NCBI RefSeq assembly: GCF_055900595.2 | Contig: NZ_CM148325.1 | Length of the DNA stretch: 64,000 nt | Reading direction: 5' to 3' (one strand) | Shown: positions 18,875-59,100 of the stretch, piece after piece | Layout of the letters: every line of letters begins with the position of its first letter | Position numbering within the stretch: the stretch's first letter is position 1 | Made by a program: the position numbers and the translations under genes | The notes under the pieces: generated by a model | Seen by the model: the letters and a program-made list of their open reading frames with translations, nothing else | What the model was told of the DNA's origin: nothing | The model's database searches: none

Positions 18875-19192
18875 TTATTGCCCAACGGGATAGGCGATAA
18901 ACAAACCGACAATTGTCAAAATACACGCCAGCAGGAATACCAACATACAATTTACGCGCTTTCGCGAAATTTTAAATAAATAGCAAAATAGTGTTGTTAC
19001 CACGATCACTACCGGGATAGTCATAAAATTAATAACGATGAGTGCTATCAATCCAAAACTTGCTCCTCCACCGTGGGGAATAAAAATGTGTTCTTCAAAA
19101 TAAACTTCTATAGCAAATGCCAGCACACATCCCAGAAAACTCATATCCAGATGAGGGTGCCATTTACTTTCTTTATGTGATGTGTCTGACAT
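18875..19192 (-). CDS. hypothetical small membrane protein (about three predicted TM segments), not recognised
   Basis: 105-aa ORF; hydrophobic stretches LGCVLAFAIEVYF, FGLIALIVINFMTIPVVIVVTTLFCYLF, MLVFLLACILTIVGLFIAYPV; SD-like gggag about 9 nt upstream of ATG; 40 bp downstream of the 420-aa ORF on same strand; AT-rich. Confidence 0.6.
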   Translation of the reverse strand: MSDTSHKESKWHPHLDMSFLGCVLAFAIEVYFEEHIFIPHGGGASFGLIALIVINFMTIPVVIVVTTLFCYLFKISRKRVNCMLVFLLACILTIVGLFIAYPVGQ

Positions 19193-19232
19193 TCTTAAAT
19201 GCTCCCGTGAGCAAACTGGCGCAAAATAATTT

Positions 19233-20495
19233 CTAAGATTGCTGATAAGACGTCGCTGTTGTCCGGCACTCCGGGCAGATAAACGCGTAAATTATCCCTT
19301 CGCCGTATTGTTCAATATCGGCATAATCCAGTTGCGCAAGAAACATCATTGTGTGGGAACATTGCGGACAGAGAGGATATTCCGCGTCCTGAATCCAGGT
19401 TGGATGCCCGCCAAGTTGCGAGAAAGAGACAGGTAAAAATGGGTCTGCGGCAAATAACGGTGACCTAAGGTTTCCCTGTCTCATGCTGTTTACAGGGAGT
19501 CGACGCCATTCCGATACATCATCCGGCAGCCAGGCAGGCGGGATATTTTTTGCAGACAAATGAGCGTTACCCTTTGAGTCCATGTAGCCGAAAATGGTGC
19601 TGTAGGCGGTGCAACATTCGCAAGTCACGACGCGAAAACTGCCGTTATCGCTAAGACCCGTTGCCTTCAGGTCAACGTCGAAAAGATTTGTTAGTGGCAA
19701 TGCGCAATTTGGACAGGTATCGTTGCGTTCATCAACAACACGCAAAGCTTCGCAAGACCCGGTGCTTTTCATCTCCAGATGAAAACATTGAGGAAAATAG
19801 AGATTACGCCTTTGATCTTCAGCGGTTAACTCCCAACCGGCCTCATGCGCATATTCTTCAGGCTCGATGTAAAGGGAGCTGCGCCACGGCGGTGGGCTAT
19901 TGCGCCAGTGGGCAAAACGTTCAACGACAACGTCATCCCCAATCCATGCCAGACATTGCAGAATACAATTTCTGTTTTCTGCATCATCCTCAACCCGTTC
20001 TAACAGCCTGTCGCGTACATCTGTGGGGGCGCGGTGGAAAGGCATATAAGAATCATTGTCCAAATCATCGTAAGAGATCCATTCTCTGAAATAGGCATTC
20101 AGATTCGCCTGGGTAAATGCCGCCAGACAAAGGCAAATCTCCTGAGCGAGCTTATATTCACCAGATGCAAAGCGTTCTGTGGCGTAATCAGCCATCAGCT
20201 GCGCTTGATCGGTGGTCAGTTGTTGATACAGGGCATCTGTGGGAACGGGGCAGGGAGTCCAGTCGATTAACGCATCGAATTTCCGCGGTTGGTGAATTAA
20301 TTTCAGCATGACAACCGGATCGCTTAACCCTGCAAACGCATTCACGATCTTTTTGTTTTTCTTGATATATTCGTCGTGCTCACGTTGCTGTTGGGCCTGC
20401 TCGCAGGGCATGCAGTATCCGTTAGTACGCGCTGCGGTTTCCGGAAGAATGGTTGATATACAAGCGGGGCTTTTACAGGGAATACGGTGAGTCAT
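19233..20495 (-). CDS. hypothetical cysteine-rich protein, unrecognised; C-terminal region resembles DUF1963/YwqG-type domain
   Basis: 420-aa ORF with aggag SD 7 nt upstream of ATG; three CxxC-containing pairs (CKSPAC/CMPC, CPNC/CECC, CPQC/CPEC); no signal peptide or TM segment; not in K-12 gene order between eutR and hemF. Confidence 0.8.
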   Translation of the reverse strand: MTHRIPCKSPACISTILPETAARTNGYCMPCEQAQQQREHDEYIKKNKKIVNAFAGLSDPVVMLKLIHQPRKFDALIDWTPCPVPTDALYQQLTTDQAQLMADYATERFASGEYKLAQEICLCLAAFTQANLNAYFREWISYDDLDNDSYMPFHRAPTDVRDRLLERVEDDAENRNCILQCLAWIGDDVVVERFAHWRNSPPPWRSSLYIEPEEYAHEAGWELTAEDQRRNLYFPQCFHLEMKSTGSCEALRVVDERNDTCPNCALPLTNLFDVDLKATGLSDNGSFRVVTCECCTAYSTIFGYMDSKGNAHLSAKNIPPAWLPDDVSEWRRLPVNSMRQGNLRSPLFAADPFLPVSFSQLGGHPTWIQDAEYPLCPQCSHTMMFLAQLDYADIEQYGEGIIYAFICPECRTTATSYQQS

Positions 20496-37350: not shown

Positions 37351-38202
37351 ATGAGTAGTTTGTTGTTGTTTAACGATAAGAGCAGGGCATTGCAGGCGGA
37401 TATCGTCGCCGTGCAGTCGCAGGTAGTGTACGGCAGCGTAGGCAACAGCATTGCCGTGCCTGCTATCAAACAGAACGGCCTGAATGTCTTTGCCGTGCCG
37501 ACGGTATTGCTGAGCAATACGCCGCATTATGACACTTTCTACGGTGGTGCGATTCCGGACGAATGGTTTAGCGGTTATTTGCGTGCGCTTCAGGAGCGTG
37601 ATGCGCTGCGCCAGCTGCGCGCTGTCACCACGGGCTATATGGGAACGGCATCGCAAATCAAAATCCTTGCCGAGTGGCTGACTGCGCTACGCAAAGACCA
37701 TCCTGACTTATTGATTATGGTCGATCCGGTGATTGGCGATATTGATAGCGGAATTTATGTCAAACCTGACCTTCCTGAGGCATACCGACAATATTTACTG
37801 CCTCTGGCGCAGGGTATTACGCCTAATATCTTTGAGCTGGAAATCCTGACCGGTAAAGATTGCCGCGATCTCGACAGTGCCATTGCCGCAGCAAAAAGTC
37901 TGCTTTCAGACACCTTAAAATGGGTGGTCATTACCAGCGCCTCCGGTAACGAAGAAAATCAGGAGATGCAGGTGGTGGTGGTCAGTGCCGACAGCGTGAA
38001 TGTCATTTCCCATTCTCGGGTAAAGACGGATCTTAAAGGAACAGGCGATCTGTTTTGCGCCCAGCTTATCAGTGGCTTGTTGAAAGGTAAGGAATTAACT
38101 GACGCGGTACATAGCGCGGGATTACGCGTGCTGCAGGTGATGCGCTATACCCAGCAGCATGGTAGTGATGAATTGATTTTGCCGCCCCTGACGGAAGCAT
38201 AA
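37351..38202 (+). CDS. pdxK: pyridoxal/pyridoxine/pyridoxamine kinase
   Basis: 283-aa ORF; ribokinase-like PdxK sequence; synteny next to crr. Confidence 0.92.
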
Positions 38203-43125: not shown

Positions 43126-43354
43126 AATCAGGATGAGCTCCTTTTGACCAATCCCAGGAAAATTCTGCGTATTTTACCGGGTAATTGCGCAATGGACAGT
43201 TAGGATATGTTCGAAAAAACAGCAAAAAGCACGATTTCATCTATCTTTGTGCTGTGAAAGTTAATAGTGCACTTGCACTTGAGGTAATCGGCAAATACTC
43301 TTAGTGAGTAAATGTTTGCCGTGGTGGCAAGGTGTTAGAACAACAGAGAATATA

Positions 43355-44353
43355 ATGATGCAGGATTTGCGTCTGATATTAATCATTGTTGGCGCGATCG
43401 CCATAATCGCTTTACTGGTACATGGTTTCTGGACCAGCCGTAAAGAACGATCTTCTATGTTCCGCGATCGGCCATTAAAACGAATGAAGTCAAAACGTGA
43501 CGACGATTCTTATGACGAGGATGTCGAAGATGATGAGGGCGTTGGTGAGGTTCGTGTTCACCGCGTGAATCATGCCCCGGCTAACGCCCAGGAGCATGAG
43601 GCTGCTCGTCCGTCGCCGCAACACCAGTACCAACCGCCTTATGCGTCTGCGCAGCCGCGTCAACCGGTCCAGCAGCCGCCTGAAGCGCAGGTACCGCCGC
43701 AACATGCTCCGCGTCCAACGCAGCCGGTGCAGCAACCCGTGCAGCAGCCTGCCTATCAGCCTCAGCCTGAACAGCCGTTGCAGCAGCCAGTTTCGCCACA
43801 GGTCGCGTCAGCGCCGCAGCCAGTGCATTCAGCACCGCAACCGGCACAACAGGCTTTCCAGCCTGCAGAACCTGTAGCGGCACCACAGCCTGAGCCTGTA
43901 GCGGAACCGGCTCCAGTTATGGATAAACCGAAGCGCAAAGAAGCGGTGATTATCATGAACGTCGCGGCGCATCATGGTAGCGAGTTAAACGGTGAACTGC
44001 TTCTTAACAGCATTCAACAAGCGGGCTTTATTTTTGGCGATATGAACATTTACCATCGTCATCTTAGCCCGGATGGCAGCGGCCCGGCGTTATTCAGCCT
44101 GGCGAATATGGTGAAACCGGGAACCTTCGATCCTGAAATGAAGGATTTCACTACTCCGGGTGTCACTATCTTTATGCAGGTACCGTCTTACGGTGACGAG
44201 CTGCAGAACTTTAAGCTGATGCTGCAATCTGCGCAGCATATTGCCGATGAAGTGGGCGGTGTAGTGCTTGACGATCAGCGCCGTATGATGACTCCGCAGA
44301 AATTGCGCGAGTACCAGGACATCATCCGCGAAGTCAAAGACGCCAACGCCTGA
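43355..44353 (+). CDS. zipA: cell division protein ZipA
   Basis: Internal ATG of ORF 43304-44353; product [31 protein letters not shown]..., N-terminal TM anchor, P/Q-rich linker, C-terminal FtsZ-binding domain. Confidence 0.92.
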
Positions 44354-44414
44354 TACACTTAAGGCAAATTAACTTATCTTCGAACCCCCGCTTGTCGGGG
44401 GTTTTTAGCATTGA

Positions 44415-48708: not shown

Positions 48709-49473
48709 TCAGAAATTAAATTTGATGGAGTAGATTATCGCATCCTGGTAAAAATCTTCGCCCAGTTTGTCATCCGCATAACGATACTGAATCCCTGTGG
48801 TGATGTGTGAAGTTGCATTCCACCAAAGTGCGACGGCACCGTTCAGACCTTCTTTGCCGCCATTACCTGCCGCGTAGGTGGCATCACGATCAAACTCGTA
48901 CTCGTTCCAGTTGGTGAGGGTGAATTTCTCACTGCCCAGCATAAAGCTGTAACCTGCAACCCAACCGGCGACATAACCGTTATCGCCGGTATAATAGGTT
49001 TGGTCTGTATAGCGTTTTGCAAAGAACGGTTTGAACCACCAACCGCTGCCGGTGAAATTGTAGCCGATCCCGTAAAGGAACATATCGTCATGGAAATTCA
49101 CACGATTCGCAGAACCGTAGGTGCCATACGCATGCAAGTAGAGATTAAATCCGGTGTCACCCAGGTAAATACGGTTGGTATTTTTAAATGTATAACGCTG
49201 CTCGCTACCCTGTTTATCATGACGATCATTATAAAAGTTTTCCCAGTCGAAGAACCCGTACATTTCTCCCCAACTAAAGTTAGCGCCGCCTTCCAGTTCC
49301 AGATATCCAAAATCATCTTTGTGTGATTTGGTCGACGATTTCTCAGTGGTTCTGCTAGTCCAGTCAAGATAATGAATACCTATATCAGCAAAACCGCCTT
49401 TAAATTCTGCATGGGATACTGCTGGTATCGCCAATACAAAAGAGAGTGTCAGAGTAAAAAGATGTTTTTTCAT
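48709..49473 (-). CDS. yfeN: outer-membrane beta-barrel protein YfeN
   Basis: 254-aa ORF with signal peptide and C-terminal aromatic residue (F); synteny. Confidence 0.85.
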   Translation of the reverse strand: MKKHLFTLTLSFVLAIPAVSHAEFKGGFADIGIHYLDWTSRTTEKSSTKSHKDDFGYLELEGGANFSWGEMYGFFDWENFYNDRHDKQGSEQRYTFKNTNRIYLGDTGFNLYLHAYGTYGSANRVNFHDDMFLYGIGYNFTGSGWWFKPFFAKRYTDQTYYTGDNGYVAGWVAGYSFMLGSEKFTLTNWNEYEFDRDATYAAGNGGKEGLNGAVALWWNATSHITTGIQYRYADDKLGEDFYQDAIIYSIKFNF

Positions 49474-53078: not shown

Positions 53079-53135
53079 GCAGATAGCAAAAAAGCGCCTT
53101 TAGGGCGCTTTTTTACATTGGTGGGTCGTGCAGGA
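53079..53135. repeat. 57-bp direct repeat copy 1: terminator hairpin plus 3'-terminal fragment of tRNA-Lys
   Basis: Identical to 53235-53291 (gcagatagcaaaaaagcgcctttagggcgcttttttacattggtgggtcgtgcagga); diverges after tgcagga. Confidence 0.8.
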
Positions 53136-53234
53136 TGACTCGCTTCGCTCGCCCTTCGGGCCGTCGCCGCGAGCGGCTCCGTTGTTTCGCTGCGCTCAAC
53201 TCGAACCTGCTGCAGGTTCGAATCTTTGAGTATC

Positions 53235-53291
53235 GCAGATAGCAAAAAAGCGCCTTTAGGGCGCTTTTTTACATTGGTGGGTCGTGCAGGA
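53235..53291. repeat. 57-bp direct repeat copy 2 (terminator plus authentic 3' end of lysV)
   Basis: Identical to 53079-53135; overlaps the 3' 17 nt of lysV. Confidence 0.8.
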
Positions 53292-53350
53292 TTCGAACCT
53301 GCGACCAATTGATTAAAAGTCAACTGCTCTACCAACTGAGCTAACGACCC
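53275..53350 (-). tRNA. lysV: tRNA-Lys (anticodon UUU)
   Basis: Reverse complement reads GGGTCGTTAGCTCAGTTGGTAGAGCAGTTGACTTTTAATCAATTGGTCGCAGGTTCGAATCCTGCACGACCCACCA. Confidence 0.95.
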
Positions 53351-53354
53351 GAAG

Positions 53355-53430
53355 TGGTGGGTGATGACGGGATCGAACCGCCGACCCCCTCCTTGTAAGG
53401 GAGGTGCTCTCCCAGCTGAGCTAATCACCC
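53355..53430 (-). tRNA. valY: tRNA-Val (anticodon UAC)
   Basis: Reverse complement reads GGGTGATTAGCTCAGCTGGGAGAGCACCTCCCTTACAAGGAGGGGGTCGGCGGTTCGATCCCGTCATCACCCACCA. Confidence 0.93.
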
Positions 53431-53476
53431 ACTTCGGTACTTCACATTTTTACAAGAAATCTAGCTGGCGAGAAAG

Positions 53477-53552
53477 TGGTGGGTGATGACGGGATCGAAC
53501 CGCCGACCCCCTCCTTGTAAGGGAGGTGCTCTCCCAGCTGAGCTAATCACCC
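53477..53552 (-). tRNA. valX: tRNA-Val (anticodon UAC)
   Basis: Same 76-nt sequence as valY. Confidence 0.93.
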
Positions 53553-53596
53553 ACTTCTCAATTTCTTGCTACACGGCGGAGACTACATAAAGTAGT

Positions 53597-53672
53597 TGGT
53601 GGGTGATGACGGGATCGAACCGCCGACCCCCTCCTTGTAAGGGAGGTGCTCTCCCAGCTGAGCTAATCACCC
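53597..53672 (-). tRNA. valU: tRNA-Val (anticodon UAC)
   Basis: Same 76-nt sequence; promoter-proximal copy of the cluster. Confidence 0.93.
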
Positions 53673-56370: not shown

Positions 56371-56446
<76 letters not shown>

Positions 56447-56485
56447 AATTTTGCACCCAGCAAATTTGGTACGTAAACGACTCGT

Positions 56486-56561
<76 letters not shown>

Positions 56562-59049: not shown

Positions 59050-59100
59050 TGGAATTGAAGCCGGGGAATTATCCCCGGCTTTTTAATTAATGAATTGGAC

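Follow-up and report, generated by a model that had tools for sequence, protein, structure and literature searches.

The zipA gene of the window, as we call the whole 64,000-nt stretch of contig NZ_CM148325.1 analyzed here, carries the 332-aa allele of the cell division protein ZipA, one of two alleles of this gene that predominate in E. coli. The allele is not private to the window strain; it is common (about 40% of sequenced E. coli), long catalogued and already known. According to the best explanation, which we consider very likely, this common allele lies one 12-nt unit apart from that of K-12 at a repeat-prone site of the proline- and glutamine-rich (P/Q) linker, probably preserves an older two-unit state, and amounts to what is expected to be a neutral change in the tether.

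The zipA gene and the architecture of its product

The gene order cysZ (divergent)–zipA–ligA, read from the open reading frames of the window, agrees with the annotation of K-12 MG1655 and of E200086 (NZ_CM128605.1; Mali, human stool), a genome to which the window is 99.97-99.98% identical. The zipA gene of E200086, annotated as a CDS of the same 999 nt, shows 100% identity to that of the window, and RefSeq records the product as WP_001305210.1, 'cell division protein ZipA'. An alternative GTG start at 43304, which would yield a 349-aa ORF, was dropped, as both reference genomes annotate the ATG at 43355 (MMQDLRL...).

ZipA is a bitopic inner-membrane protein, and its P/Q domain was reportedly described as an unstructured tether by Ohashi et al. 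in 2002. In K-12 numbering, the protein is laid out as a transmembrane helix (7-28), a charged region (29-85), the PQ domain (86-185) and a globular domain (186-328) (PMC6904479). The PQ domain is predicted to be intrinsically unstructured and to serve as a flexible tether, while the globular domain binds the FtsZ C-terminal peptide; the linker conformation has been argued to be restricted and possibly more compact than a free coil (PMC6904479). The corresponding features of the window are as follows:

43355..44353, + strand: zipA coding sequence, ATG start, TGA stop, 999 nt including the stop, 332 aa
43367..43432, + strand: hydrophobic N-terminal membrane-anchor segment, about residues 5-26, read from the translation and identical to K-12
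43610..43921, + strand: P/Q-rich disordered linker, residues 86-189 (86-185 in K-12 numbering), from composition, with limits taken from PMC6904479
43943..44350, + strand: C-terminal FtsZ-binding globular domain, from Pfam PF04354 and PDB fragments, protein identical to K-12

The hydrophobic stretch is predicted to be the single N-terminal transmembrane anchor (bitopic, N-out) that characterizes ZipA. Between this anchor and the globular domain lie a charged segment and then a low-complexity P/Q-rich linker, again as in ZipA; residues 86-189 comprise 31 P and 26 Q among 104 residues (55% P+Q), with a G+C content of 63-69%. The Pfam profile ZipA_C (PF04354) matched residues 198-321 over profile positions 2-126 of 128 (E=3.2e-46; 156.8 bits, cut-off 23). 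Among PDB entries, the full-length ZipA chain 9iue was aligned over its residues 1-328 to residues 1-332 of the window protein (E=1.2e-212), the C-terminal fragments 1f46, 1f47 and 1f7w were aligned to residues 189/193-332 (E 1e-88 to 6e-93), and 1y2f gave a further match to the FtsZ-binding domain. The window gene is zipA, encoding the essential membrane tether of the FtsZ division ring. Binding of the FtsZ C-terminal peptide and a role in division would be expected of its product from the 100% identity of residues 153-332 with K-12 ZipA.

The difference from K-12

A sequence-only reading of this DNA had set a 332-aa ZipA call against roughly 328 aa for K-12, had placed the difference most likely in the QPVQQP repeats of the P/Q linker, and had suggested pairwise alignment to the K-12 protein as the check. 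Both lengths are borne out by the ORF and by the K-12 MG1655 annotation (b2412, NP_416907.1; 987 nt, 328 aa), and the alignment, at 332 versus 328 aa, confirms that they are not identical. In pairwise protein and DNA alignments, the sole length difference was one in-frame gap of 12 nt, i.e., four codons, in K-12. This 4-residue indel lies within QPVQQP-type repeats and accounts for the whole difference; the motif itself starts at residues 103, 123 and 127. The two units concerned are:

43727..43738, + strand: first 12-nt unit, GTGCAGCAACCC, absent from K-12, from the DNA alignment with K-12 in codon view
43739..43750, + strand: second 12-nt unit, GTGCAGCAGCCT, kept in K-12, with 2 synonymous differences from the first

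The window reads CAG CCG GTG CAG CAA CCC GTG CAG CAG CCT GCC, and K-12 reads CAG CCG GTG CAG CAG CCT GCC at the junction. Since GTGCAGCA also opens the following unit, the gap can be placed in nine equivalent ways, from 43727-43738 to 43735-43746. At the protein level, the gap falls opposite window residues 123-126, where K-12 reads AQPVQQPA.

Apart from the missing unit, the two zipA genes differ by 15 nucleotide substitutions (97.3% DNA identity, counting the gap), and the proteins by three amino-acid substitutions from the window to K-12, R120H, T122A and S152P, all of them in the linker (H120, A122 and P148 in K-12 numbering). Residues 1-119 and 153-332 are identical in the protein alignment. 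Relative to K-12 ZipA (Swiss-Prot ZIPA_ECOLI), the window thus has the same cysZ–zipA–ligA context and an identical anchor, charged domain and FtsZ-binding domain, the K-12 protein having one 12-nt unit (4 aa) fewer in its linker.

Frequency of the two alleles

Only one of 5,426 complete E. coli genomes lacked zipA. Short junction queries, evaluated at a coverage of at least 80% and designed so that a 28-nt seed word could come from the intended allele alone, detected the two-unit junction in 2,024 of the 5,426 genomes and the K-12 one-unit junction in 3,036. About 365 genomes were matched by neither query, probably on account of nearby SNPs. When 60 of the ranked matches were sampled at regular intervals, 25 genes were 999 nt long and 33 were 987 nt long. 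Among the matches listed, the 999-nt form was carried by O25b:H4-ST131, several O157:H7 strains and APEC IMT5155, and the 987-nt form by K-12 derivatives, HB101, O111:H8 and ETEC strains.

The exact window protein was found on at least 1,000 contigs in a collection of 15 billion proteins. Its UniRef name has the Swiss-Prot entry ZIPA_ECOL6 as representative, i.e., the 332-aa ZipA of CFT073; this match is by name, and it indicates no difference at the protein level.

These counts bear directly on whether the length difference could be an artefact of sequencing or assembly in low-complexity sequence. Repetitive, G+C-rich sequence is error-prone, and one RefSeq record does carry an error-ridden zipA copy of 992 nt. 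The indel of the window is, however, in frame, and the 2,024 genomes with the identical junction are independent and complete. Together with the exact protein on at least 1,000 contigs, this count refutes an assembly error as the cause of the extra unit, and we regard error of any kind as extremely improbable. K-12 is not the sole standard for ZipA length, and a 4-aa difference from it is no annotation anomaly.

Micro-repeats and recurrent indels in the linker

The two adjacent 12-nt units match at 10 of 12 positions and are accompanied by dispersed imperfect copies: GTGCAGCA recurs at 12-nt spacing (8 nt exact), and related 20-nt copies lie at 43721, 43733 and 43772. Tandem Repeats Finder, applied to positions 43300-44400 with a minimum score of 30, reported no tandem array. 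Because the repeat is so short and imperfect, with only two units at 10/12, the site is a micro-repeat hotspot and not a phase-variable array like those of true contingency loci.

Independent events recur at this site, the registers of K-12 and GMM076 representing distinct 12-nt deletions. The zipA gene of GMM076 (987 nt, 328 aa) carries its deletion in a register unlike that of K-12 and retains CAACCC, with the junction GCG CAA CCC GTG CAG CAG CCT; the allele otherwise lies 15 sites from K-12. Two further genes have lost longer segments. In SW07163, zipA is identical to K-12 except for a further 39-nt deletion with its end points in TGCAGCAGCC repeats, and in EM10-18-28 the gene lacks 111 nt of the window allele, with CAGCAGCC at both ends of the deletion. 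The zipA genes of all three strains are annotated as intact CDSs. The two shorter ones were located as follows:

SW07163, positions 348-1295 of the retrieved locus: zipA, 315 aa
EM10-18-28, positions 301-1188 of the retrieved locus: zipA, 295 aa

Seven Escherichia ZipA sequences, 320-332 aa in length, were aligned. The gap columns were all located within window residues 122-166, and substitutions were almost entirely limited to the linker. The ZipA proteins of other Escherichia measured 331 aa in E. albertii, 326 aa in E1V33, 321 aa in MOD1-EC7003 and 320 aa in SCPM-O-B-8794. Among the natural linker alleles, no indel lies outside the P/Q linker, and the indels begin and end within QPVQQP-type or CAGCAGCC repeats; the alleles differ in the number and position of units lost or gained, and that of the window is the common two-unit form.

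The linker had been described from the outset as prone to slippage, and the indels agree with this description, as they comprise whole units, are flanked by direct repeats, stay in frame and recur. Since they are repeat-bounded, in frame and recurrent, we infer slippage or microhomology-mediated deletion as their mechanism. One of two adjacent GTGCAGCARCCY units in the linker makes up the length difference from K-12, and the short direct repeats (8 nt exact at 12-nt spacing, together with dispersed CAGCAGCC) would promote either of these processes, slippage during replication or deletion through microhomology.

Direction of the change

The comparison of the units suggests that the two-unit state is the older one and that the K-12 form arose by a 12-nt deletion, a direction that we hold to be probable; one unit would thus have been lost in K-12-type strains, and K-12 itself probably bears a derived deletion. 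Removing 12 nt from the window yields the K-12 junction exactly, with no further change. The opposite course, in which slippage duplicated the 12-nt PVQQ unit in the window lineage from a K-12-like one-unit ancestor, is less direct: the units differ at 2 of 12 positions, both synonymous (CAA CCC in the first, CAG CCT in the second), so that, had the K-12 unit been duplicated, two substitutions would have had to follow. For this reason, a deletion in K-12 appears likelier than an expansion in the window.

Outgroups were collected with a wobble-degenerate DNA pattern for a 12-residue peptide among assembled-genome contigs, which returned four Escherichia loci; this is a small outgroup sample, E. 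fergusonii, Salmonella and the main E. coli representative not being among the matches to the degenerate pattern. Over about 10 kb, identity to the window was 90.7% for E. albertii, 91.5% for E1V33, 93.0% for SCPM-O-B-8794, 95.5% for MOD1-EC7003 and 96.7% for K-12. In E. albertii, SCPM-O-B-8794 and E1V33, the number of QPVQQP-type units is two or three; CAA stands in the first of these and CAG in the final one, ahead of the A-Y codons. This CAA...CAG arrangement, shared with the window by other Escherichia lineages, again makes a deletion in K-12 the likelier event. The two-unit form moreover occurs in lineages as unlike as ST131 and O157:H7, and GMM076 provides a one-unit form that is itself derived from the two-unit form. 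Phylogroup assignments of the strains named are general knowledge.

An expansion would be in keeping with the ability of slippage to gain units as well as lose them, and E1V33, with its three QPVQQP units, indicates that gains happen at this site. A single unit is also found in the close outgroup MOD1-EC7003, where it keeps CAA and looks like a separate loss. Because this close outgroup has one unit, the site must have changed several times and parsimony is weak here. Expansion in the window lineage is possible but less parsimonious than the K-12 deletion, and we judge it unlikely.

Expected effect on ZipA function

The flexible tether is the only part of the protein altered by the change. The four residues make up about 4% of the 104-residue linker and would correspond to an estimated contour length of roughly 1.5 nm; for a coil, the mean end-to-end distance is estimated to change by less than this. 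The extra unit is expected to be functionally neutral, because neither the anchor nor the FtsZ-binding domain is affected, both alleles are frequent, and there are intact alleles that lack 13 and 33 residues relative to K-12. The initial reading of the variant as a benign polymorphism fits its frequency of about 37-42%, the ZIPA_ECOL6 naming and the intact 315- and 295-aa genes, and the allele is almost certainly benign. The intact natural series of 332, 328, 315 and 295 aa constitutes evidence that the linker of an essential division protein tolerates sizeable shortening. The significance of the 4-aa difference as such is very small.

It could be argued that linker length is tuned by selection, the 332- and 328-aa alleles giving a slightly different membrane–FtsZ distance or tether dynamics and being kept by lineages. 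Both alleles are indeed frequent and seemingly follow lineages; within the genus, the linker differs in length between domains that hardly vary at all; and the restricted, compact conformation reported for the linker (PMC6904479) would allow length to have some effect. A lineage association is, however, also predicted by simple inheritance, a change of 4 in 104 residues is very small, and isolates occur with intact genes shortened by as much as 33 residues relative to K-12. Engineered large truncations of the ZipA linker reportedly still support division (Schoenemann, Vega and Margolin, J Bacteriol 2020). We consider such tuning very unlikely. A wider version, in which the linker is a length-tuned element whose 332- and 328-aa alleles, along with the rarer 315- and 295-aa alleles, alter Z-ring tethering geometry or division timing, and whose variation is supplied by the QPVQQP micro-repeats, appears highly improbable.

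Other features near zipA and in the wider window

A hairpin was predicted in the zipA–ligA spacer, 29 nt past the zipA stop (-19.2 kcal/mol, z=-1.9):

44382..44406, + strand: G+C-rich hairpin with a 9-bp stem (GAACCCCCG/CGGGGGUUU) and a 5-nt loop, running into a U tract, from RNA folding

From its predicted fold, the hairpin looks like a putative intrinsic terminator or attenuator ahead of ligA. A promoter/terminator consensus scan returned no promoter and did not call the hairpin after zipA. Across the P/Q linker, at 43490-43956, four ORFs of 64-101 aa were noted in alternative frames or antisense, on both strands. They were set aside as by-products of stop-poor, G+C-rich codons of the CAG/CCG type within a conserved, annotated essential gene.

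A plasmid-borne second zipA was also considered and rejected. Of two matches labelled 'plasmid', the one examined, pZ0117EC0005-3 (NZ_CP098226.1; 50,485 bp), carries pdxK-crr-ptsIH-cysKZ-zipA-ligA-yfeH-yfeR-yfeN with almost every gene frameshifted, zipA measuring 992 nt, and looks like an unpolished duplicate chromosomal contig.

Close as the window is to E200086, three differences stand out. E200086 has an IS3-family insertion in pdxK and an IS421 insertion in the pdeA–nupC spacer, upstream of nupC, both absent from the window (at about 37917-37922 and 59064-59075, respectively). At 49036, the window has C where E200086 has T; yfeN is intact in the window and is annotated in E200086 as a pseudogene with an internal stop.

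Between eutR and hemF, the window contains a two-gene islet (18875-20495, - strand) that encodes a 420-aa protein, DUF1963 domain-containing in relatives and Cys-rich with CxxC motifs, and a 105-aa hydrophobic protein. Of 5,426 complete E. coli genomes, only 28 carried the islet DNA; the match reached 99% or more in nine of them and 92% in EPEC E2348/69. K-12, in which eutR presumably adjoins hemF directly, is not among the twelve islet matches listed.

An Rfam scan of the window returned the expected tRNA genes and an RtT element only. Three tRNA-Val genes and one tRNA-Lys gene (named after the E200086 annotation) form a cluster at 53119-53672 (- strand), upstream of gltX and adjacent to the RtT element, and two tRNA-Ala genes lie at 56371-56558 (+ strand). 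The eut operon of the window is uninterrupted, eutA adjoining eutB at the position of the CPZ-55 prophage in K-12.
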